64,000 nucleotides of DNA, taken from NCBI GenBank assembly GCA_963737265.1, contig CAVTRY010000007.1, forward strand, positions 256,001 to 320,000. The letters run 5' to 3'. The notes under the pieces were generated by a model that ran no database searches, had not been told where the DNA came from, and worked only from the letters and a program-made list of their open reading frames with translations. Shown here in pieces: positions 37,644 to 51,873 of the stretch. Made by a program: the position numbers and the translations under genes. Numbering within the stretch: position 1 is the first letter of the stretch; each line of letters starts with the position of its first letter. The DNA comes from an uncultured delta proteobacterium. GTDB lineage: Bacteria; Myxococcota_A; Polyangia; Fen-1088.

Positions 37644-39235
37644 GTCCGCCGCCTGTGCCCATCGGCCCGCCCGTGGACGACGGGTATCGCTGGCGCGTTC
37701 TTGGCGTGGTCATGCTGGGCACGGTAATGTCGGCGCTCGATTCGAGCATCGTCAACGTGTCGCTGCCCAACATGATGGCCAGCTTCGGCGCAAGCGTCGA
37801 CGACATCGAATGGGTCGTGACCGGTTACATGCTCGGCTTCTCGACCTTCATGCCCTTGACAGCGTGGCTTCGCGATCGCGTGGGTTACAAGGTGCTCTAT
37901 GTCGCCAGCCTCGCTGTTTTCATCGGTGGCTCCGCGCTGTGCGGACTCGCCCCCAACCTGCCGGCGCTGATCTTGGCTCGCGTGGTTCAAGCGTTCGGCG
38001 GCGGCGCCATCACCCCCACCGGCCTGGCCATGATCGCCGAGGTCTTCCCGCCCAAAGAGCGAGGGCGCGCGCTTGGCCTGTGGGGCGTCGGTGTCGTGGT
38101 TGGGCCCGCTTTCGGCCCCACCCTGGGCGGATACCTCACCGAGACGCTCGGCTGGCGCAGCATCTTCAACATCAACCTTCCCATCGGCGTAGTCGGCCTT
38201 CTCGCCGCCTCGCGGATACTTCGCGCCGACAAGCCGCACGCCGCGAGCCATCGTGGCTTCGATCTACCCGGGTTCGTGTTGCTCACCGCCTTTCTCGTCG
38301 GCGCACTACTCGGTCTCTCCAACGGCAATCGGGAAGGTTGGACCTCGAACTACGTCGTTGCCTGCGCGCTTGTGAGCAGCGTCTCGTTCGTGCTTTTCCT
38401 CGCCGTCGAAAGCATCGTCTCCGAGCGCATTCTCGATCTCGGGCTATTCCGCAAACCCCAGTTCACCGTGGCCATGGTGGTGACGTCCGCGCGCTCGGTC
38501 GCCTTGTTCGGTGGCATCTTTTTGTTGCCACTTTTCCTGCAGGATCTGATGGGCCGGAGCGAGATCGACACCGGGTTATTACTGCTTCCCGGCGCCTTGG
38601 TCATGGGGCTGGTCATGCTGGTCTCCGGCCGGATCGCGGATTGGCTCGGCACGCGCGTTTGCACGATTCTCGGCCTCTTGTTCATTGCTTGGTTCATGTG
38701 GACCTACCGCAGGCTCGACGTGACGACGAGCACGTGGGCCGTGCTCTACCCGACCCTGGTACGGGGTGTCGGGCTGGGTCTGCTGGTGACGCCGGTCATG
38801 ACCGCAGCTATCAATGCCGTGCCGACGCCGAAAGCCGGCATGGCTTCTTCGATGTTGAGCTTGATTCAACAAATATCGGGCTCGCTCGGCATCGCCGTGC
38901 TTGCCTGCGTACTCGGCCGGCGTGCCACCTTCCACCTCGCGGTGGTGGGTCAGGGCCTGGATGCCGCGCGACCGGCCCTCGCCGGCGCAACCCGAGCCCT
39001 CGCCACGCGCGCGCTCGAGCTTGGAACGCCGCCCGCCGCGGCAGGCCTAGTCGCGCGCTCGCTCGTCGCGCGCCAGATCGCCGGAGCGGCGTCGGTGCTC
39101 GCATTCAACGATGCCTTTCTAATCGGCGCGGCCATCGTCGGCGCGGGAGCCATCCCCGCGCTTTTTCTCGCATCCAAGTCGAAGTCCAAGGCACGCGCGC
39201 ACGGAGCCGCAGCGCAGGTCGAGGTTGTGGAGTAG
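37640..39235 (+). CDS. DHA2 (EmrB/QacA) MFS efflux permease
   Basis: LDSSIVNVSLP, GPTLGG and WRSIFNINLPIG motifs; about 14 TM segments. Confidence 0.93.
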   Translation: MSPPPVPIGPPVDDGYRWRVLGVVMLGTVMSALDSSIVNVSLPNMMASFGASVDDIEWVVTGYMLGFSTFMPLTAWLRDRVGYKVLYVASLAVFIGGSALCGLAPNLPALILARVVQAFGGGAITPTGLAMIAEVFPPKERGRALGLWGVGVVVGPAFGPTLGGYLTETLGWRSIFNINLPIGVVGLLAASRILRADKPHAASHRGFDLPGFVLLTAFLVGALLGLSNGNREGWTSNYVVACALVSSVSFVLFLAVESIVSERILDLGLFRKPQFTVAMVVTSARSVALFGGIFLLPLFLQDLMGRSEIDTGLLLLPGALVMGLVMLVSGRIADWLGTRVCTILGLLFIAWFMWTYRRLDVTTSTWAVLYPTLVRGVGLGLLVTPVMTAAINAVPTPKAGMASSMLSLIQQISGSLGIAVLACVLGRRATFHLAVVGQGLDAARPALAGATRALATRALELGTPPAAAGLVARSLVARQIAGAASVLAFNDAFLIGAAIVGAGAIPALFLASKSKSKARAHGAAAQVEVVE

Positions 39236-39241
39236 AGGCCG
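37929..39241 (+). repeat. First copy of a 1313-bp direct repeat (second copy 47708-49020)
   Basis: Colinear at offset 9779 with about ten substitutions. Confidence 0.95.
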
Positions 39242-39315
39242 CGACCGGGTACCTCCTGTCTATTGGTCATGCCAGTCGCACCCCTGCCCCACGCGGCTGC
39301 GCCGCGCCCGTCGCT

Positions 39316-39560: not shown

Positions 39561-39621
39561 ACGGCCCTCGTCTGTTCTTTTTACTTGCACTGCCTACGAG
39601 AGCTGCAACGGCATGTTGGAC
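39557..39621 (-). other. attC site 4, half only (truncated by the IS91 end)
   Basis: R'' GTCCAAC, then ATGCCGTTGCAGC; shares CTCGTAGGCAGTGCAAGTAAAAAGAACAG with attC3. Confidence 0.85.
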
Positions 39622-39645
39622 GGCGCGATGTTCCCGGGTGCTCGC

Positions 39646-40129: not shown

Positions 40130-40253
40130 GTCCAACGCCTTGGCGTTAAGCTGCGGGCGGCCGTCTGCGACCGCCCATCTGCCCAGACGACCCGAATCAC
40201 TCCCTGTTCTTTTTACTTGCACTGCCTACGAGCGCTTCAACGGCCTGTTGGGC
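40130..40253 (-). other. attC site 3
   Basis: GCCCAAC-AGGCCGTTGAAGC...GCAGCTTAACGCCAAGGC-GTTGGAC. Confidence 0.92.
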
Positions 40254-40262
40254 GGCGCACAC

Positions 40263-41741
40263 TCAGAACGCGAAGGCCTGTTGTGGTGAGCGGGCCAATC
40301 TAGGTCGCGGACCGAGGCCTTCGGCTCGCAGTAGCGCATCCAGAGAAAGCGACTGCAACAAAGCCTTATTGATTGGCCTCTTAGCGTCCCAGAAGATTCG
40401 AGCTGTGAAGAATGCAGATGCCTTTTCGCCGTTGAGAACACACGCCAGCTCGGCGGCTTCTTCTTCTGTCTTGCATGGAAGGAAGTACGCCGTATCGTCA
40501 ACCATCACGGGCTGTCCATCGATTGGCCGAACAACAGTGAATGCGATCCTTTTGTACAATCCACAGATTGCGACTTTGTATGGCGAGAAGGAATAGTCGC
40601 CGACCCCGAAAATCGCGAATGGTGGCTGATCTCGATAGATGCTGCTCTTACGCGCATCCAGATGTTCACGGTGGGAAATGAGATAGGCCCACGTAGAGGG
40701 AGCACGGTCTCGAATAGCGCCAGTATTTTCGCCAAGCGACCTTTGTGGGACAACAACGCGACGACGCGCAGTCATACGCCCGTTGGCCAGATCGGATCCC
40801 TTGAGGAGCGGATAGACGTACTCACGTTCGAGGTCAACTCGCTTCCCCATGCCATTGACCAAGTGGTCATCCACGATCTCAAGTTCCATGATGCGAGCAC
40901 AGTCATGCTTGATCCCGGAACGCCATTCTACCTCGGACGGGCCTTCGAGATTACGGGTTGCAAGATATGCGTCGACGTCACTGCAGAGCTGTCCATCCAC
41001 GACGCCCATGTGTTTGGATGGCGCAGAAGCGGTGATGCTTTCGTAGACGGACCATTTGTGAGCGTGACCCTTTTGAAGCGCGGAACTCGGGCGGTGAACA
41101 GTAAGGAGAACGGCGTCGACAGCAGCTGCGAAGTGCATGCGCGCGTCGATCGCGTGAACGGAGCCTTGGAGGTTCCAGCGTTGCAAAGCAACGTGCTCCA
41201 TAACTTTGCGAGCGACCCCTGCCTTACAGAGCATCGCCAGTGTTGTGTCGCTACCGTTGGCGGCCTGTAACAAGCGCAGGAGCATCCATTCCGAGATGTC
41301 AAAGTTGCTCTTCCCGGTCATCGCATCAAGCCCGCTCAGGTTCTTGAAGTTGGTCTTCGCCGGAAGGTTGCCGGCATCGAGCGCGCCTAGCGCGGAGTTG
41401 GTCACCCAGGGTGGATTGCCGATGACAAGCACCGGGGACGGGAGGCGAGCCAGGACGTTCTCCCATTTCACTTGAAAGAAGTCGGCAACTGCGATCTCTG
41501 CGTCGTAGCCGGTGAGTGCGTCGCGGGCATCGCGCACGTAGGATTCATTCAGATCGAACCCGAAGAGTCGCGCCTTCGGGAACACGGCGGCAGCTGCCGC
41601 GAGGAACGCGCCGCGGCCGCACGTGGGCTCCAGAATCGAAGCGGGAACACGAACATTGCTCGCCAGCAAAGAAACCACTCCCTCGGCCAGTTCTTGCGGC
41701 GTTTGCCAGTCACCAAATTCGATTCGTTTCTCATCACGCAT
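40263..41741 (-). CDS. Cassette 3: N6-adenine DNA methyltransferase (gamma class)
   Basis: LEPTCGRGAF (motif I) precedes GNPPW (motif IV). Confidence 0.9.
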   Translation of the reverse strand: MRDEKRIEFGDWQTPQELAEGVVSLLASNVRVPASILEPTCGRGAFLAAAAAVFPKARLFGFDLNESYVRDARDALTGYDAEIAVADFFQVKWENVLARLPSPVLVIGNPPWVTNSALGALDAGNLPAKTNFKNLSGLDAMTGKSNFDISEWMLLRLLQAANGSDTTLAMLCKAGVARKVMEHVALQRWNLQGSVHAIDARMHFAAAVDAVLLTVHRPSSALQKGHAHKWSVYESITASAPSKHMGVVDGQLCSDVDAYLATRNLEGPSEVEWRSGIKHDCARIMELEIVDDHLVNGMGKRVDLEREYVYPLLKGSDLANGRMTARRRVVVPQRSLGENTGAIRDRAPSTWAYLISHREHLDARKSSIYRDQPPFAIFGVGDYSFSPYKVAICGLYKRIAFTVVRPIDGQPVMVDDTAYFLPCKTEEEAAELACVLNGEKASAFFTARIFWDAKRPINKALLQSLSLDALLRAEGLGPRPRLARSPQQAFAF

Positions 41742-41758
41742 GGTGCAAGGTCCAGGGT

Positions 41759-42421
41759 CTAGAGGCGAGCGACACCCTCGACAGAGCCGGCCTCGCGTAT
41801 CGCGTGACCGTACTGAAGTCTCCACTGGAGCGCGTTTGAGATGGTCAAGTAGCCCTGTGCGGGCGAGCTCTTGAGGACGTCGCGAGCAATATTGCGCAGC
41901 TCTATTTCTTCCACGGGAAGATTGCGGTCGGTCAGGTAAGCAACAACATCATCCTCATTGGCATCGTCGCTGATCATCTCCCGGAGCCTGCGAGTCATCG
42001 TGAAGTCGCCAGTTGCCCGCGCTTCAACGAAGATGGTGTGGAGGATTCTGAGATTAGCGGTTCGGTTTTGACGATCGTCCTTCTTGTCGTAGACGAAGAC
42101 CAAGAGGGAGTACCCGAGCCCAAAGATCTTCTGCCGAGCGGACTTGAACGGGCATGATGACTGCGGCTGCTTCTCGCTGGTGACCTTGATGTCGACGTTG
42201 ACGTCGGGGAAGTCGATACCCTTTGCCGAGTTGCCTTCTTCGAGGGCGTAGCGGTCTGCAATATAGGCCCGAAATTTCTGTTCCAGGTAGGTGCCGACGG
42301 CTTTGCCGTCGGTCACCCCGAAGAGACTCGGTTCGGCGTGCAGACTCTCCTTCTCAGAAGAACCGCGTGCTTCCTGCCGAAGCAGGGCTTCTGTGAGCTT
42401 ACGTTTCGCGGTGCGCGTCAT
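41759..42421 (-). CDS. Cassette 3: type II restriction endonuclease, NspV-like
   Basis: GVTDGKAVGTY.EQKF, IDFP...DIKVTS, QPQSSCPFKSARQKI and ISNALQWRLQY resemble R.NspV as recalled. Confidence 0.8.
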   Translation of the reverse strand: MTRTAKRKLTEALLRQEARGSSEKESLHAEPSLFGVTDGKAVGTYLEQKFRAYIADRYALEEGNSAKGIDFPDVNVDIKVTSEKQPQSSCPFKSARQKIFGLGYSLLVFVYDKKDDRQNRTANLRILHTIFVEARATGDFTMTRRLREMISDDANEDDVVAYLTDRNLPVEEIELRNIARDVLKSSPAQGYLTISNALQWRLQYGHAIREAGSVEGVARL

Positions 42422-42544
42422 GGTGAACAGACGTACAGTATGCTACCAGGTACTGGGACAACTGGCCACCGGGAACCGCACGCATGAGAAACACATGCAT
42501 CCACACCGCTTTGCGAGGTCCATCGTCGTCCGCCCAACGCTTTG

Positions 42545-44430
42545 ATCGGCATAGGGGCCTCGACAGATCGTCAAGGACCCCTGCCACACCACCCGGCGTG
42601 CGGGTCCGCACCGGGCGGTTCGGGAAGTTGAGGTTACGTGGCCAGCCGGGGTACCCCCAACTGGTCAAAGTAGCGAATGGGAAATGCCACGTTCATCATA
42701 CTAGCCGAGTTTTTCCACCAGCGGCGACAGTTCACGGCCACTACGCCTGCTGCGTCATGGGACATCCCCCGAGCCCGCAGTTCCCGATAGACGGTCGATT
42801 GTTGTCCCCAGTGTTTCAAGTGGAGAGCCCGTAGGCGACGGCGAATCCATTTGTCCAAGTTGCCAAAGACCCGAGGCGTGTCCGCGAGCCGGAAGTATTC
42901 CTTCCAACCACGCAGATATTCCCCCAGCCGTTTGCAGACCTGGCCAATGCTTTGCCCGCCCGTCCGCCTCGTGATGTTCCGGACTTTGTCCTTCATCGTG
43001 GCAAGGGCTTTGTCTGCCACCGCGCGCTTCACCGTTCCTTCCCGGTTTACCCAGAATGTGTAACCCAGGATTTTCCGGTTCCACGCCAAGCCCACCGCGC
43101 TTTTCGTTTCATTGACTTGAAGTCGCAGTCCCGCGTAGAGCCGCCGTAGCAGCCCCATCACACGCTCGCCCGCACGCCGCGACCGAAGGTATACGTTGCA
43201 GTCATCAGCGTACCGGCAGAATGCGTGCCCGCGTTTCTCCAGCTCCTTGTCCACTTCGTCGAGCAGCACGTTGGCTAGCAGCGGTGACAAGGGGCCGCCT
43301 TGTGGCGTTCCCTCGTACCGCTCCGTCGCCACCCCGCCAGCCATAATGCCGGCCCCGAGGTAACGCCGGATGAGCCCCAGCAAACGACGGTCGCCGATGC
43401 GTTTCGCCAGTCTTCCCATCAGCACGTCGTGGTTCACGCGGTCAAAGAATTGCTCCAAGTCCACGTCTACCACCCACTTGCGTCCGCCCTGGATATACCC
43501 CTGCGCCTCGACGATGGCGTCGTGCGCACGGTGCCCAGGCCGGAAACCGTGGCTGTGCTTTGAGAAGTCCGGGTCGAACATCGGTTGCAGAACCTGCAAT
43601 ACAGCCTGCTGGATGAATCGGTCGACCACCGTCGGAATGCCAAGCTTGCGCATTCCTCCGCTGGCCTTCGGTATGAGTTGCTCCTTCACAAGCGCGGGCT
43701 GGTACGTCCCCGCGAGCAGTTCCTCGCGCAGCCGTGGCCAGTATTCGCGCAGGTGTATCGGCAATTCATCCACCGTCATCCCGTCGATGCCGGGACTGCC
43801 CTTGTTCCTTCTCACTCGCTTCAGCGCGGCCAAAAGGTTCGGGCGTTCGCACACCCTCTCCATCAGGCCGCTCGCTCCCGAGCGCTCGTTTTCACACGTC
43901 GCCGTCGGCGCTTCCTCGCTTCGTTTTCCCGTCGGGGTTTCACCCCTATTTGAAAACGTTAGCTCCAGTTGCCTGGTCATCTGAGGCCGTTTGCTTCCGA
44001 GACGCATGTTCGTTTCGCTCTCCTTCTCGTTCAGTCCTTCGCATCGCCAAAGACTTCCGGCGTCGGTGATATCGCCGCCCCGGCTTCGACTTCGCTACTA
44101 CGACCTCTGCTGACTTCTCGCCCCGTCGCGTCCGCGCCGTCGCCCTTTCAGGCACAAGGCGAGATCTCCCCAGGTAAGTACGTCGTCCTTCCCCGCACGA
44201 CCGCCGGATCTACGTAGCCTGAGCTTTGACCATCGAGGCTTTGTGGCAACGGGCCCACTCGCCCCGCTCGGCGCCGCCTCTTATCCGGTTTTTGTTCATC
44301 AGCCCGCGGTTTCGCTCCCTGCTTCCTCCCCACGATTGGTCGCCCTTTCGCAGTTGCAGTTCGCTTCGTTTGGGATGGTCTCCTTTCGGGGGGACTTGCA
44401 CCCCCAAGACGACGCCCATGCTGGGCGCAC
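42545..44430 (-). mobile_element. Complete group IIC intron, 1886 nt, inserted in attC2
   Basis: 5' end GTGCGCCCAGCATGGGCG; short domain V GAACCGCCCGGTGCGGACCCGCACGCCGGGTGGT; 3' end CTATGCCGAT; flanks rejoin into an attC. Confidence 0.95.
42634..44007 (-). CDS. ltrA: Group II intron reverse transcriptase/maturase, no endonuclease domain
   Basis: LGIPTVVDR, GTPQGGPLSPLL, RYADD and GWKEYF motifs. Confidence 0.95.
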   Translation of the reverse strand: MRLGSKRPQMTRQLELTFSNRGETPTGKRSEEAPTATCENERSGASGLMERVCERPNLLAALKRVRRNKGSPGIDGMTVDELPIHLREYWPRLREELLAGTYQPALVKEQLIPKASGGMRKLGIPTVVDRFIQQAVLQVLQPMFDPDFSKHSHGFRPGHRAHDAIVEAQGYIQGGRKWVVDVDLEQFFDRVNHDVLMGRLAKRIGDRRLLGLIRRYLGAGIMAGGVATERYEGTPQGGPLSPLLANVLLDEVDKELEKRGHAFCRYADDCNVYLRSRRAGERVMGLLRRLYAGLRLQVNETKSAVGLAWNRKILGYTFWVNREGTVKRAVADKALATMKDKVRNITRRTGGQSIGQVCKRLGEYLRGWKEYFRLADTPRVFGNLDKWIRRRLRALHLKHWGQQSTVYRELRARGMSHDAAGVVAVNCRRWWKNSASMMNVAFPIRYFDQLGVPRLAT

Positions 44431-44551
44431 CCGTTCAGCGGCAAGCCCGCCGCCGAGTCGGCGCTTCTATTCTACACGATGTCCCTGCGGCGGGATTGTC
44501 AGCTGCAACGGCTTGTTCGACAGCGCGTCGGGGGCGCGGTTGGTTGCGCTC

Positions 44552-44926
44552 CTACTTCTTGGGCGGCTTCTTGCTCACCGTCATCGATCCCTTGGTCATA
44601 CGTGCGCCACCACCCTGGTCCAGCAGAACGGTCAACTCCGCCGAAGCGTCGACATTCAGCTTCTTCGGCGCGTTCGTCGAGATGACGATCGTCTGTTGGC
44701 CGAGATGAAAAGTGGTGGTACCAGACTCGATGGTGACGATCAGTGCTACGTTCGTCTGGTTCTTCACTTTCAGCTCAAGCTTGGCTCCTTCCTCCTTGGC
44801 CGTGAAGGTGAGGGCGAGCTGACCTGCGTCGAAGCCGTCCTTCAGCAGCACCGTTTCGCCGGCGAGGGCGGATCCGGCTGCCACGATCGTCATCACCAGC
44901 GCCATGACCATGAAGAGCTTTGTCAC
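44552..44926 (-). CDS. Cassette 2: small secreted beta-rich protein
   Basis: RBS AAGGAG, GTG start, signal peptide ending ALA, followed by attC. Confidence 0.75.
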   Translation of the reverse strand: MTKLFMVMALVMTIVAAGSALAGETVLLKDGFDAGQLALTFTAKEEGAKLELKVKNQTNVALIVTIESGTTTFHLGQQTIVISTNAPKKLNVDASAELTVLLDQGGGARMTKGSMTVSKKPPKK

Positions 44927-45115: not shown

Positions 45116-45219
45116 GTCGAACGCCTTGCCGTTCAGCTGCAAGCCCGCCGCCGAGTCGGCGCCTCGATTCTACACGATATCTCTGCGGCGGGATTGTCAG
45201 CTGCAACGGCTTGTTCGGC
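45116..45219 (-). other. attC site 1
   Basis: GCCGAAC-AAGCCGTTGCAGCTGAC...GCAGCTGAACGGCAAGGC-GTTCGAC. Confidence 0.93.
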
Positions 45220-47186: not shown

Positions 47187-47333
47187 TCGCTCTTCTCCAC
47201 CGTCTCCTGCCAAAGTCAGTTTGCTCGCGACCAGAACCGTCAGCGCTGCGCCCAGCGAGCAAAGCGTACTGCCAGTCTGGGGCACGGACAGCATCATCTC
47301 ACTTTTCGAACGCAAATACATCGAGGTTTGTCC

Positions 47334-47365
47334 GCCGAACTACCATTATCCCACGAAAAATAATC
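47334..47365 (-). other. Putative attI site
   Basis: AT-rich ...GGGATAATGGTA-GTTCGGC; core GTTCGGC is the exact complement of the attC1 R'' box GCCGAAC. Confidence 0.75.
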
Positions 47366-47534
47366 AATATCCCAACGCTGGATGCACGCCGTGATGGCTG
47401 AAAGCGGGGGTGCCGTTCCAGTCATTTCGCGGACTTGGATGCGTCTGCTTCATGAGAGGCCACCAGCCGGCCTGCCGGATAAAGACGGCGCGGCGGCCGG
47501 ATAAATATGGGAGCCACGTTCTTTGCGCCCGTTG

Positions 47535-47707
47535 TCAGTGGTCGAGAGGGCTTCGGACTCCACCAGCGCCGCGGTTCAGGACGTGGGTGTAGACCATGGT
47601 CGTGGCCACGTCTTTGTGGCCTAGCAACTCCTGAATCGTGCGGATGTCGTAGCCGTCTTCCAGCAGGTGGGTGGCGAAGGAATGACGCAAGGTGTGGGGG
47701 CTGACCA
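47535..47707 (-). pseudogene. intI: Integron integrase, C-terminal fragment only
   Basis: [50 protein letters not shown]; cut off by the emrB duplicate. Confidence 0.9.
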
Positions 47708-49020
47708 GCTCCGCGCTGTGCGGACTCGCCCCCAACCTGCCGGCGCTGATCTTGGCTCGCGTGGTTCAAGCGTTCGGCGGCGGCGCCATCACCCCCACCG
47801 GCCTGGCCATGATCGCCGAGGTCTTCCCGCCCAAAGAGCGAGGGCGCGCGCTTGGCCTGTGGGGCGTCGGTGTCGTGGTTGGGCCCGCTTTCGGCCCCAC
47901 CCTGGGCGGATACCTCACCGAGACGCTCGGCTGGCGCAGCATCTTCAACATCAACCTTCCCATCGGCGTAGTCGGCCTTCTCGCCGCCTCGCGGATACTT
48001 CGCGCCGACAAGCCGCACGCCGCGAGCCATCGTGGCTTCGATCTACCCGGGTTCGTGTTGCTCACCGCCTTTCTCGTCAGCGCACTACTCGGTCTCTCCA
48101 ACGGCAATCGGGAAGGTTGGACCTCGAACTACGTCGTTGCCTGCGCGCTTGTGAGCAGCGTCTCGTTCGTGCTTTTCCTCGCCGTCGAAAGCATCGTCTC
48201 CGAGCGCATTCTCGATCTCGGGCTATTCCGCAAACCCCAGTTCACCGTGGCCATGGTGGTGACGTCCGCGCGCTCGGTCGCCTTGTTCGGTGGCATCTTT
48301 TTGTTGCCACTTTTCCTGCAGGATCTGATGGGCCGAAGCGAGATCGACACCGGGTTGTTACTGCTTCCCGGCGCCTTGGTCATGGGGCTGGTCATGCTGG
48401 TCTCCGGCCGGATCGCGGATTGGCTCGGCACGCGCGTTTGCACGATTCTCGGCCTCTTGTTCATTGCTTGGTTCATGTGGACCTACCGCAGGCTCGACGT
48501 GACGACGAGCACGTGGGCCGTGCTCTACCCGACCCTGGTACGGGGTGTCGGGCTGGGTCTGCTGGTGACGCCGGTCATGACCGCAGCTATCAATGCCGTG
48601 CCGACGCCGAAAGCCGGCATGGCTTCTTCGATGTTGAGCTTGATTCAACAAATATCGGGCTCGCTCGGCATTGCCGTGCTTGCCTGCGTACTTGGCCGGC
48701 GTGCCACCTTCCACCTCGCGGTGGTGGGTCAGGGCCTGGATGCCGCGCGACCGGCCCTCGCCGGCGCAACCCGCGCCCTCGCCACGCGCGCGCTCGAGCT
48801 TGGAACGCCGCCCGCCGCGGCAGGCCTAGTCGCGCGCTCGCTCATCGCACGCCAGATCGCTGGAGCGGCGTCGGTACTCGCATTCAACGATGCCTTTCTA
48901 ATCGGCGCGGCCATCGTCGGCGCGGGAGCCATCCCCGCGCTTTTTCTCGCATCCAAGTCGAAGTCCAAGGCACGCGCGCACGGAGCCGCAGCGCAGGTCG
49001 AGGTTGTGGAGTAGAGGCCG
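47708..49020 (+). pseudogene. 5'-truncated duplicate of the EmrB/QacA gene
   Basis: Copy of 37929-39241 lacking the first ~96 codons. Confidence 0.95.
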
Positions 49021-49528
49021 GGAGGCTGCTTTGCTATACATCCGTCCGAGCTGGATGGCGCCTTCGAGGGTGGACATCTTCTTATCGAAGGTCAGCGTGT
49101 TGGCGCCCTCGGAGCGATGGCGTGCGTGAATGAGGCGATTCGCGAGGCCGGCGCCGACGCCGGGATCGAGCGCAGCTGCCGCCTCGGACTTCCTTGGCTT
49201 CGGCGTTTTGGCGCGAGGTCTCGCCCAACTCTTCTGTCCTACCTGCCACGAGCGCTACGTTGTGGCCTGGAGCTGCAGAGGGCGCGGGTTCTGTCCAAGC
49301 TGTGGCGGCCGACGAATGAACGCGGGCGCGTTCAATCTGCTAGATCACCCCCTGCCCGAGGTGCCCTCGCGACAGTTTGTGATCACGGTGCCTTTCTCGC
49401 CGAGTTTCCGTTGGCCTTCGACCGGAAACTAAGTCCTGCGCATCTTCATCGACACCGTGGCGGCAAACGACCGCAGGCGTATGGCGGATCGATGCTGGAC
49501 GTCAACTACATTCACCCGGTGACGTCAA

Positions 49529-50377
49529 TTACATCGCCCCATTGTTGTCGGGGGTAGTTGTCGTTGGTTGATCGGTAGTTGTCGTAGTTGTCGCTGGGGT
49601 GGTGACGCCTCTCTTTCGTGCTTCTTCGCTGCGGTAGCTGGGGCCGGTCATCTCAAGGATGACCGCGTGGTGGACCAGTCGGTCGATGGCGGCGGCGGTG
49701 GTCATGGGATCCTTGAAAATGCGGATCCAATCGCTGAAGACCAGGTTGCTGGTGATGAGGACGCTCTTGCGTTCGTACCGCTCGGCCAGGAAGGTGAAAA
49801 GGACCTCCATTTCATCGCGGCTCTGCTGGACGTAGCCGATGTCGTCGAGGATCACGGCGTGATAGATGTTGAGCGCGGCCAGTTCTCGTTCCAGGCGAAG
49901 GTCGCGCTTGGCGGCCAGCAGCCTCTGGACAAGCGCGAAGGTCGGCGTGAAGAGGACCCGGTAGCCGCGCCGGATGAGTTCGTGGCCGATGGCAGCCACA
50001 ACGTGACTTTTGCCTCGGCCGGGCAGTCCGAAGACGAGCAGGTTCTCCCCACGTTCGACAAAGCCACCCTCACACAGGCTCGCCATCTGCTTCATCACCT
50101 TGGGTGACAGCCGACCACGTTCCAGGGTGGCCAGGGTTTTCTCCGTGGGAAGGTCCGAATCGCGAAGCGCGCGATCGATGCGACGGGTTCGGCGCTCTTC
50201 GATTTCCAGTTCGGCCAGGTGCTGGAGGTATTGGCTGAAGGTCCACCCCTCGCGGCTGGCCTTGATCGCGATCTCCTCGGCGTGCCGGGTGAAGGCAGGC
50301 AGCTTGAGCGCGCGCAGAAGCACCAGCAGAGCGTCGAGCGCGCTCGGCTTGACCGTGTCTACGGAGACGTTGGTCAT
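49529..50377 (-). CDS. istB: IS21 helper ATPase
   Basis: GLPGRGKSH, LDDIGY, ITSN and AAIDRLVHH motifs. Confidence 0.95.
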   Translation of the reverse strand: MTNVSVDTVKPSALDALLVLLRALKLPAFTRHAEEIAIKASREGWTFSQYLQHLAELEIEERRTRRIDRALRDSDLPTEKTLATLERGRLSPKVMKQMASLCEGGFVERGENLLVFGLPGRGKSHVVAAIGHELIRRGYRVLFTPTFALVQRLLAAKRDLRLERELAALNIYHAVILDDIGYVQQSRDEMEVLFTFLAERYERKSVLITSNLVFSDWIRIFKDPMTTAAAIDRLVHHAVILEMTGPSYRSEEARKRGVTTPATTTTTTDQPTTTTPDNNGAM

Positions 50378-51873
50378 GATGCCACCTGTTCGAGGAGCAG
50401 GTCGTAGGACGCGAGATCGACCAGCGGTGCTTCGAGCGCGGGGACGCTCGGTGGATAGGTACTGTCCGTCGCCTGTGTGCATCTCTTCTTGGTTGCATCC
50501 GCCGTCAAGATGGTCCCATCGGCAAGCAGAGTCGTGAGCGCTTGCTCGACATCGGCTTCCATCGTGCTGGCGGCCAGGTGAAGAATGCGCAGGTATTCAA
50601 CGTCGCCTTTGATTCCAGGCTTGGTCGCCTGGATCGCGTCGTATGCCCGCCTGAAAGTCACGCTTGGAAACAGCTCTTCTCGGTAGACGTAGCGAGAAAA
50701 CGCGCCCGGCTTGCGCACCAAAGACCAGATGACGTGCCGGTAGTCGATGCGCGCGGTCTTGCCTCGCAGCCTGTCGCAGGCCAATTCCAAGTTGTCGGCG
50801 TAGTACACCTCGATTCGGTGCTCGAACACGCGGACTCTCACCCGTGCGCCGATCAGCCTCGACGGCACCGAGTAGGCGCACGACTTGACCCGGATGGTGC
50901 TCGTCGACGCCACAGGTGCCGTCATTTCTGCGTACTCCGGCAAACGCTCCACCACCAGCGGCCGCATGGCTTCGATCTCCTCGGCGACGCGCGGGCCTCG
51001 CGAAGCGTTGGCTTTGCGGACCACCTTGGCTACGAAGCGTTCGTAGTCGTCTTGGTCCGCGAAGTCGCGGCTGCCACGCACCAGCAACGCTTGTTCAAGC
51101 CGACGCTTGAGCGCGCCGTTGCTGGCCTCCACATCGCCGTTTTGTTCCTTGGCCCCGACGGCTGTAGTTCGTGGCTCCATTCCGAGGTGCCGCATGACCG
51201 CCTTGTATTCATCGTTGAAAGTGCGATCTTCCGCATCGCGAGCGATCTGATGTGTCGCCGCCGTCGAGTGGTCGGTTTGGTGGTATCGCGGCACCCGCCC
51301 AAGCTGGAACAGCGCCGACTGGATCCCTCGCCGAAGCGCTGCCAGAGACTCCGACAGACACGCGGTCGCCCATTGCCAGTTCGAGTACGGCAGCACCGTC
51401 ACGCACAAAAGGTGCACAAATAGCTGGCCCACGATCGTCACACCAAGCTCCGCCGTCGACGTGAAGTCGGTTTGCGCGGCTTCACCGGGCCGATGCGCCT
51501 GCGTGAACCAAATCTCACGCGCAGGACCATGCTCGGCCCGCCAGCGACGGATTCGCCGCTGCATTGTCCGAAGATGGCTCTCGTTGTACCGCCCTGGCTG
51601 CTTCGCCTCCAGCAGCTCCAGCACCGTCTGAGCCTCCAGCCCAGGCGTTTCCTCCAGCAACTTGGCCACGGCTGGCCAGTCCTCGGCGAACGCGTCAGGG
51701 CGCGTCCGCCACCACCGCGGCTGCCGTAGCTCCGACGGTAGCTTGCCCGCGGCGATGTATCGCCGCCCTGTCTTCCGGTCCATGCCCGCCTTCATGGCGG
51801 CCTGGCCTACTTTTCCAATCTTGCTCATCTCTTCCATCAAACGCCTCACTTGGGCGTCGGTGACCGGCTTCAA
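50374..51873 (-). CDS. istA: IS21 transposase
   Basis: GEAAQTDF, QTDH, NGDVE and YSVPSRLIG motifs; ATGA overlap with istB. Confidence 0.95.
   Translation of the reverse strand: MKPVTDAQVRRLMEEMSKIGKVGQAAMKAGMDRKTGRRYIAAGKLPSELRQPRWWRTRPDAFAEDWPAVAKLLEETPGLEAQTVLELLEAKQPGRYNESHLRTMQRRIRRWRAEHGPAREIWFTQAHRPGEAAQTDFTSTAELGVTIVGQLFVHLLCVTVLPYSNWQWATACLSESLAALRRGIQSALFQLGRVPRYHQTDHSTAATHQIARDAEDRTFNDEYKAVMRHLGMEPRTTAVGAKEQNGDVEASNGALKRRLEQALLVRGSRDFADQDDYERFVAKVVRKANASRGPRVAEEIEAMRPLVVERLPEYAEMTAPVASTSTIRVKSCAYSVPSRLIGARVRVRVFEHRIEVYYADNLELACDRLRGKTARIDYRHVIWSLVRKPGAFSRYVYREELFPSVTFRRAYDAIQATKPGIKGDVEYLRILHLAASTMEADVEQALTTLLADGTILTADATKKRCTQATDSTYPPSVPALEAPLVDLASYDLLLEQVAS

Follow-up and report, generated by a model that had tools for sequence, protein, structure and literature searches.

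Recurrent insertion of a group IIC intron into the top strand of integron attC sites in an uncultured delta proteobacterium

Here, we present an analysis of a group II intron and of the integron cassette array that carries it in a stretch of 64,000 nucleotides (nt) from an uncultured delta proteobacterium (GTDB lineage Myxococcota_A; Polyangia; Fen-1088; assembly GCA_963737265.1, contig CAVTRY010000007.1, positions 256,001 to 320,000), which we refer to as the window. We found that a group IIC intron, which encodes its own reverse transcriptase (RT), splits the integron site attC2 in the spacer between the L' and R' boxes and is oriented in the same direction as the cassette genes. The same junction recurs at other attC sites of the genome, in related genomes and in metagenomes, and exon-binding site 1 (EBS1) of the intron pairs over its full length with the bases in front of the junction. 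Taken as a whole, these observations are most probably explained by an intact, recently mobile, endonuclease-less IIC intron that homes into the top strand of attC sites. The elements that carry this argument are listed below; here and throughout, positions are those of the window unless preceded by a contig (C) or locus (L) number, and a slash in a sequence marks an insertion junction.

42545..44430, minus strand: group IIC intron, 1886 nt, 5' GUGCGCC ... CCGAU 3', boundaries read from the sequence.
42634..44007, minus strand: intron-encoded RT/maturase, 457 amino acids (aa), with a YADD motif; RVT_1 at E 8.3e-37 and GIIM at E 1.5e-19.
44248..44252, minus strand: EBS1, CCGUU, in the loop GGGC-CCGU-UGCCAC; pairs with intron-binding site 1 (IBS1), (A)ACGG.
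42547..42619, minus strand: domain V (42588-42619) and domain VI (42547-42586), from folding; conserved in homologues.
44431..44521, minus strand: 5' part of attC2, with R'' GTCGAAC (44521-44515), L'' GTTGCAGC (44509-44502), the loop, L' GCTGAAC (44439-44433) and GG (44432-44431), the end of IBS1.
42532..42544, minus strand: 3' part of attC2, comprising the spacer CAAAGC, whose initial C is taken as IBS3, and R' GTTGGGC.
45116..45219, minus strand: attC1, intact, with the empty target AACGG/CAAGGC, approximately 700 nt upstream of attC2.

Based on its ribozyme domains, its endonuclease-less RT and the placement of this RT in the tree described below, the element is an intact group IIC intron. 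On the minus strand, the exon/intron joints read GCTGAACGG / GTGCGCCCAGCA...(intron)...CCCCTATGCCGAT / CAAAGC GTTGGGC; the intron starts with GTGCGCC and ends with CCCCTATGCCGAT, and GUGCG...GAU satisfies the group II rule of 5' GUGYG and 3' AY. The Rfam model group-II-D1D4-3 (RF02001) matches 44349-44178 at 100.6 bits (gathering score 32), and a second D1-D4 model (RF01998) reaches 34.6 bits, slightly below its cut-off of 35. The Rfam D5-D6 model gave no match to the intron at E<=0.1, and the assignment of domains V and VI is based on folding and conservation. In the terminal 81 nt of the intron, folding gives two hairpins. One, of 34 nt, resembles domain V, and the other, assigned to domain VI, contains an unpaired A that is 7 nt away from the 3' splice site; the D5/D6 fold has an energy of -48.6 kcal/mol (z -5.11), and none of 200 shuffles was as good. 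In the 457-aa RT, Pfam gives RVT_1 and GIIM and no other family, and no endonuclease domain was found. The genome holds four full copies of the intron (listed at 100% identity), all with an open RT frame, and one internally deleted copy. The identity of the four full copies indicates that the intron has been mobile recently.

The junction in attC2 is located in the L'-R' spacer, 6 nt before R'. The 5' exon has the layout GTCGAAC-AAGCC-GTTGCAGC-(63 nt)-GCTGAAC-GG and is assigned to the repeat family D3, while the intact attC1 reads GCCGAAC-AAGCC-GTTGCAGC-...-GCTGAAC-GGCAAGGC-GTTCGAC. In an initial annotation made from the letters of the window, the intron was placed in a split attC at 42532..44521, and the removal of 42545-44430 was said to restore a site like attC1. 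Both claims hold to the nucleotide: attC2 comprises 44521..44431 and 42544..42532, attC2 is 93% identical to attC1 over 94 nt, and attC1 reads as it was given there. The top strand of attC1 folds at -31.7 kcal/mol (z -3.96), and the hairpins of the array sites have z -4.0 and -4.7. When the interrupted site is folded as top-strand DNA, the five exon bases that precede the junction (AACGG) are paired with CCGTT, which places the intron at the 3' foot of the L stem. This fold and the minus-strand open reading frames (ORFs) agree with the further claims that the intron and its RT are sense to the cassettes and sit in the L'-R' spacer directly 3' of the CCGTT...AACGG stem.

The complementarity of R' and R'' is symmetric and, therefore, cannot settle which strand of the site is occupied. 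Our assignment derives from colinearity with a known site, the strand of the ORFs, a shared unit of ORF and attC, and the orientation of intI. The minus-strand reading of attC2 is colinear with attC(aadA1) at locus L132, where this site follows its gene in a class 1 integron. Both sites have the layout R''(7 nt)-5 nt-L''(8 nt, GTTNNAGC)-loop-L'(7 nt, GCTNAAC)-spacer-R' GTTRRRY, with the extra base in L'', and a plus-strand reading would reverse this 8/7 asymmetry of L'' and L'. The cassette ORFs (124, 220, 520 and 184 aa) and the RT are all on the minus strand, and the cassette stop codons lie 4-30 nt ahead of R''. Moreover, the unit that is 100% identical between contigs C7 and C11 consists of the cassette 2 ORF and its downstream attC; the attCs that precede the ORF are not the same in the two contigs. 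Finally, intI is co-directional with the cassettes at three loci, unlike in the common divergent layout, an arrangement that we take to be the 'inverted-integrase' layout. Accordingly, we assign the intron to the attC top strand, sense to the cassettes.

In a domain I alignment of 72 insertions, EBS1 was recognized as the four bases that follow a conserved GGGC in a hairpin loop. In the window intron, these bases are CCGU and form four of four Watson-Crick pairs with ACGG. Examples of EBS1 and IBS1 across the alignment are AACG with CGTT, ATGT with GCAT, CGCT with AGCG and, in the window, CCGT with ACGG; among 64 distinct insertions, a mean of 3.42 of the four positions are paired compared with 1.86 +/- 0.13 in 2000 shuffles (maximum 2.33). 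This covariation confirms EBS1 as assigned from the alignment. IBS1, i.e., the end of the L' box plus GG, makes up the 3' foot of the L stem, and the sequence of EBS1 equals that of the opposing L'' arm. For EBS3, all columns of a 60-row domain I alignment were compared by mutual information with the base that opens the 3' exon, and no column was convincing. In 55 of 60 cases, this base is C or T, as would be expected if a conserved G pairs with it. Thus, of the two pairings anticipated in the initial annotation, that of EBS1 with ACGG stands, whereas that of EBS3 with C has no covarying column behind it.

Insertion at this position recurs within the genome. Four of its five insertions (three full copies and the deleted copy) are located at L'(GCTKAAC)GG/CAARGC-GTT in different attCs, which belong to unrelated cassettes. 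This distribution is beyond chance, since the genome contains 5,514 AACGGC hexamers, of which only ∼18 are in an attC context (14 empty and 4 occupied). A comparison of the sequences that flank the four full copies showed no relatedness on either side (22-31% ungapped identity, ∼25% overall), and the intron lies downstream of cassette 2 on C7 and upstream of the same cassette on C11. Among relatives, L100 and L104 have the same attC top-strand junction on both the 5' and the 3' side, and in L102 and L114, its 3' side alone is seen. The exact top-strand junction pattern occurs at eight places in 5 of the 89 genomes of the order, and the lineage keeps EBS1 CCGU across genera. In metagenomes, the same junction is present in 56 contigs with 45 distinct 5' exons; 36 of these 45 have the L'' motif CCGTTGNAGC (<=1 mismatch) 9-63 nt upstream, and two of the remaining nine are visibly degenerate attCs. 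The bottom strand of the attC sites offers the same stem and AACGG/C, in the form GCTGCAACGG/CTTGTTCG; a matched bottom-strand junction pattern had no match in the 89 genomes of the order, as opposed to the eight of the top strand. Thus, the pattern scans of these 89 related genomes reveal a strand bias, with a uniform direction and use of the top strand only. Altogether, the intron targets this position systematically and not in one isolated event, which is a stronger outcome than the initial annotation expected. Decayed insertions are also present in this attC position: short remnants of an intron 3' end, either from the window intron or from a relative, lie at C12:259177-259202 (L089) and C11:1197594-1197663 (L087) and continue into CAAGGCGTTCGGC or CAAGGCCTTGCG.

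Homologous introns place this targeting in a wider context. In GTDB genomes, we identified 80 such introns, whose RTs are 57-79% aa identical to the window RT. The survey of exons covered 62 distinct 5' exons of at least 60 nt from all sources, of which eight are attC top strands and 54 are not. With terminator-like defined as a 60-nt minimum free energy of <= -20 kcal/mol and at least three T in the last 8 nt, 44 of the 54 non-attC exons are terminator-like, and the attC sites have one to three T in this 8-nt stretch. For 52 of the 54 non-attC exons, the last paired base is no more than 9 nt from the junction. In L044 and L008, the intron is also in an attC top strand, with the junction 3 nt further upstream (GCTGAA/CGGCAAGGC-GTTCGAC and GCTTAT/CGGCCAGCC-GTTGGGC, respectively), and their EBS1 fits this register. 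L106 and L126 have the 3' exon of the L044/L008 register; the intron 5' ends were not found at these two loci, and the L106 region appears disrupted. At L044:693-1365, a 673-nt group II intron without an ORF (5' GTGTGCCCAGCA ... CCCCTATGCCGAT 3') is inserted in the attC top strand at GCTGAA/CGGCAAGGC-GTTCGAC, and the L044 contig carries a second, RT-bearing intron with the same type of 3' exon.

The RT tree comprises 92 rows (quick IQ-TREE with SH-aLRT support) without named type introns such as B.h.I1. In this tree, the window RT pairs with that of L100 (support 99). The two group with L001, found after a terminator, and with L002, for which the locus does not include the 5' exon (support 98), inside a 76-row environmental clade. 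The antisense introns of class 1 integrons (L096, L097, L099 and L128) form their own clade (support 99) in the other branch. An 89-row clade (support 99, stem length 1.78) unites the window RT with the IIC-attC introns, apart from two actinobacterial outgroup RTs. By this phylogeny, the window RT groups with class C RTs, is outside the classical IIC-attC clade, and lies among introns that mostly follow terminators. The environmental introns in attC top strands occupy three places in the maximum likelihood tree, with the registers AACGG/C, GAA/CGG and TAT/CGG; an approximately unbiased test, for which the group was named after the tree had been seen, does not reject a single clade of these introns (p 0.08).

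In the relevant passages of PMC3001079 and PMC7923331, IIC-attC introns are described as a monophyletic subset that inserts into the bottom strand of attC at R'', with the consensus TTGT/T, opposite to cassette transcription. Introns of this kind (S.ma.I2 type; L096, L097, L099 and L128, on plasmids) share with the window intron an endonuclease-less class C-type RT, an attC hairpin as the probable target, a 4-nt IBS1 and a putative 1-nt IBS3, and the splitting of attC by the insertion. They differ in that they insert antisense in the bottom strand at TTGT/T in R'', whereas the window intron is sense in the top strand at ACGG/C in the L'-R' spacer. In L096, L097 and L099, ltrA is antisense to the cassettes and the 3' exon starts with T, and the RTs of the four introns are 39-48% aa identical to the window RT. 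The terminator-targeting IIC introns (L001, L003-L005 and others) share with the window intron the RT clade (57-79% aa identity), the intron architecture, the EBS1 loop and insertion a few nt after a DNA hairpin; their hairpins are GC-rich with T-rich tails, whereas the hairpin at the window intron is an attC, with IBS1 as part of the L' box.

Sense insertions in attC have been reported. A one-sentence description in PMC7923331 presents an intron of E. cloacae (Rodriguez-Martinez et al., 2012) as a sense/top-strand attC insertion, and the intron of S. algae KC-Na-R1 is oriented in the same way as the cassettes according to the account in PMC9229058. The S. algae intron (L132) is inserted inside R' of attC(aadA1) at GCGT/TAGAT, 6 nt downstream of the window position; its RT is 48.6% identical to the window RT and falls in the other major clade. 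The S. algae-type junction is found in eight plasmid records. Both are isolated reported cases from other lineages, in contrast to the multi-copy lineage of the window. UHB.I2 (Sonbol and Siam 2021), as described in the corresponding part of PMC7923331, shares the sense orientation in a cassette array beside an attC hairpin but is a single case of a group IIB/CL1 intron that follows attC rather than splitting it. Searches of open-access text brought up no description of a multi-copy lineage that homes, in chromosomal integrons from the environment, to the spacer between L' and R' on the attC top strand. Thus, top-strand attC insertion per se has precedents, but not for the window clade or position. 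The suggestion in the initial annotation that the window intron represents a different targeting mode is, therefore, only partly sustained: strand, position and RT clade are unlike those of IIC-attC introns, but the E. cloacae and S. algae introns preceded it in sense orientation. The same annotation had allowed that close homologues might mostly follow terminators, making the insertion a one-off, or that top-strand insertion might already be documented for the clade. Homologues outside attC do mostly follow terminators, but the insertion is not a one-off; and the documented top-strand cases concern other IIC introns.

Several observations weigh against homing into the attC top strand as the explanation. 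IBS1 lies within the lower stem, paired with CCGTT, so that the foot of the stem must open, leaving the upper stem and 5 free nt. The geometry is similar at the terminators of relatives, where the stem ends 4-7 nt before the junction in L001, L003-L005, L009, L013 and L014. The copy on C14 follows a plain 8-bp GC hairpin at CATCGG/, with three of four EBS1 pairs, and the intron is, therefore, not strictly attC-specific. The pattern scans of genomes and metagenomes were defined by the L' motif and, thus, show recurrence rather than the share of copies that are in attC. Moreover, the related genomes are non-independent samples, and the genome itself (25 contigs, 6.55 Mb) has an estimated contamination of 7.6%. 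The GC skew of the intron sense strand around the five copies is weak (-0.014 to +0.033, with mixed signs), too weak to assign the lagging-strand template to either strand. Finally, no contig from two DNA and two metatranscriptome runs joins 44431 to 42544; this comparison covered contigs only, mostly of relatives, over 42300-44700, and bears neither way on splicing; the contigs of the RNA libraries represent relatives at 90-95%.

Part of this evidence would also fit an ordinary terminator-targeting IIC intron that accepts hairpins in general and has an EBS1 that happens to match a repeated attC motif, in which case the occupancy of attC would reflect the many identical sites on offer and no special adaptation to attC or to a given strand. 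The prevalence of terminator-like exons among its nearest relatives and the C14 copy are in line with this idea, and the attC-top insertions at three places of the environmental clade, in different registers, suggest that retargeting is easy. Nevertheless, we regard a generalist of this kind as unlikely, since it would leave unexplained that the bottom strand, with the same stem and AACGG/C, is unused in the 89 genomes while the top strand is occupied at eight places in five of them, that CCGU is kept across genera, that metagenomes contain 45 distinct exons at this junction, and that four of five insertions fall into the ∼18 attC sites among 5,514 hexamers. It is very improbable that the strand was misassigned and that the sites should be read from the plus strand, which would put the intron in the bottom strand like a classical IIC-attC intron. 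The attC site is nearly palindromic, its R'/R'' complementarity is symmetric, and the co-directional intI departs from the common layout; however, the 8-nt L'' and 7-nt L' are colinear with attC(aadA1) in the minus-strand reading only, the cassette ORFs are all on the minus strand with attC right after their stops, and the shared C7/C11 unit is an ORF with its downstream attC. The insertion site (ACGG/C in the spacer rather than TTGT/T in R'') and the position of the RT outside the IIC-attC clade argue against misassignment as well. Scarcely credible, and the least probable of all, is a one-off ectopic insertion, or a passive spread in which the copies were distributed through duplication of cassettes or recombination of the integron, without retrohoming. 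The duplication of cassette 2 between C7 and C11 documents that cassettes move or duplicate in this genome, but the unrelated flanks of the four full copies and the location of the intron on opposite sides of cassette 2 in the two arrays argue against passive spread, and the same junction in other genera and in metagenomes argues against a one-off. We also considered the genesis of a cassette by recombination of a terminator copy with an attC copy; this idea was dropped because the sole non-attC copy, on C14, is antisense to the adjacent gene.

For homing into the attC top strand, which is the explanation that we favor, we propose the following mechanism. The single-stranded top strand would fold into the attC hairpin, and the intron ribonucleoprotein (RNP) would use this hairpin as other IIC introns use terminator hairpins. 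EBS1 CCGU(U) would pair with (A)ACGG, which consists of the end of the L' box and the GG behind it, and the RNP would reverse-splice into single-stranded DNA between GG and C, 6 nt upstream of R'. By analogy with endonuclease-less IIC introns, the RNP would use a hairpin together with a pairing of 4-5 nt, and because the window intron has no endonuclease, priming presumably relies on replication. The strand may be chosen by the side of the bulged base or by the strand exposed at the fork. Because the intron is sense to the cassettes, its co-transcription with them and its splicing are possible in principle, with GCTGAACGG-CAAAGCGTT as the predicted joint. At the DNA level, R' has moved 1.9 kb from L' and R''; IntI use of attC2 should, therefore, stop, which would tie cassette 2 to the restriction-modification cassette and make the two behave as one unit. 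In metatranscriptome contigs from two runs, which derive from relatives that are 90-95% similar, the summed depth is ∼1000-1440 at domains V-VI (window 42543-42623) and ∼105-188 on the attC part of the 5' exon (window 44406-44567), with DNA carry-over possible. A loose contig end at 44431 was considered as an empty attC2 and rejected, as it reads like attC1.

The cassette array around the intron contains the following additional features.

44552..44926, minus strand: cassette 2 ORF, 124 aa, no family match.
40263..42421, minus strand: cassette 3, type II restriction-modification, with a restriction endonuclease (REase; 41759-42421, 220 aa) and a methyltransferase (MTase; 40263-41825, 520 aa).
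40130..40253, minus strand: attC3, R'' GCCCAAC ... L' GCTTAAC GCCAAGGC R' GTTGGAC; holds a 78-nt remnant of the second element described below.
39572..39621, minus strand: 5' half of attC4 (half-site 39621-39602), with R'' GTCCAAC and L'' GTTGCAGC; a remnant of the second element comes next.
47326..47710, minus strand: 3' end of a truncated intI (47538-47708) with 212 nt downstream; TIGR02249 at 106 bits, residues 258-314.

R' of one site and R'' of the next are complementary in 7 of 7 positions three times (GTTCGAC with GTCGAAC, GTTGGGC with GCCCAAC and GTTGGAC with GTCCAAC), which is the signature of integron cassettes; L' and R' of attC4 were not found in the window. Cassette 2 and its attC have a 100% identical second occurrence from C11:1170195 onward, and the same cassette is, thus, present in two arrays of the genome (C7 and C11). 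The REase of cassette 3 matches NF052465 at 327.5 bits (cut-off 290) and PADLOC REase_II at 311 bits, and the methyltransferase matches PADLOC MTase_II at 503.8 bits, in agreement with the earlier identification of this downstream cassette as a restriction-modification cassette. The intI remnant comprises the last 57 codons. Together with the 212 nt downstream, it shares 97.7% identity with the corresponding region at the full intI of C17; this full intI matches TIGR02249 at 456 bits (cut-off 265) and is directly upstream of attCs of the same family. Three integron platforms share the stretch of the intI 3' end plus 212 nt at 97-98% (window 47326-47710, C17:94413-94797 and C11:1165285-1165664), and among them, a full-length intI is present at C17 alone. 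The truncated intI and the entire cassette array are flanked by a 1316-bp direct repeat (37929-39244 and 47708-49023; 99.2% identity, 11 mismatches) that contains the 3' part of a gene for a major facilitator superfamily (MFS) transporter. The right copy of this repeat begins exactly at the end of the intI remnant (47708-47710), and its position suggests a rearrangement that cut intI. Past the duplicated MFS fragment, an IS21-type pair is encoded on the minus strand (IstB, 49529-50482; a protein with rve/Mu-transposase-C, 50374-51873).

A second element of ∼1.9 kb also has this attC family as its target. It is oriented like the cassettes, and in every case, it follows L'' directly (GTTGCAGC/GCTCGTAGGCAGTGC...). 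Full copies are located at C17:95011-96890, C17:100007-101894, C11:1166346-1168241 and C13:374889-376785, and the window contains remnants of its first 54-78 nt only, at 40180-40257 (attC3) and 39572-39625 (attC4). The element has two ORFs of 185 and 362 aa without a match in Pfam, NCBIfam or PADLOC, and the 362-aa ORF has one homologue among 5.8 billion proteins. Because of this single homologue, the element does not look like an IS1111-attC element. At C11:1166352-1170220, one attC is doubly occupied: L'' is followed by the 1.9-kb element, and L'GG by the group II intron.

We speculate that IIC intron lineages of soil and peat specialize on the top strands of chromosomal attC sites, perhaps with more than one origin from terminator-targeting ancestors; that these introns, being sense to the cassettes, can be removed from transcripts by splicing while they freeze neighboring cassettes in the DNA; that their strict strand choice, with stem and AACGG/C on offer in both strands, derives from the side of the bulge or from lagging-strand exposure in sedentary arrays; and that attC hairpins are a landing pad for several unrelated mobile elements, including the second element, each having its own strand and position. 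All parts taken jointly, we put this forward tentatively, as a possibility that falls a little short of being probable. Introns in attC sites are taught as one lineage that lies antisense in the recombinogenic bottom strand, and an antisense intron blocks cassette transcription unless an internal outward promoter compensates. Our findings imply that IIC introns can recognize attC independently of the bottom-strand structure on which IntI acts. Splicing can remove a sense intron from the transcript of the operon, and its cost to the host and its effect on cassette expression, thus, differ from those of an antisense intron. The strand asymmetry observed with matched motifs gives a handle on what the IIC RNP reads in a DNA hairpin, and it allows testing of replication strand exposure as the driver of strand choice; use of such an intron to mark attC top strands, or as a tool for them, is also conceivable. 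For the integron, insertion between L' and R' should lock cassettes and stabilize arrays, as here for the restriction-modification cassette and its upstream neighbor.

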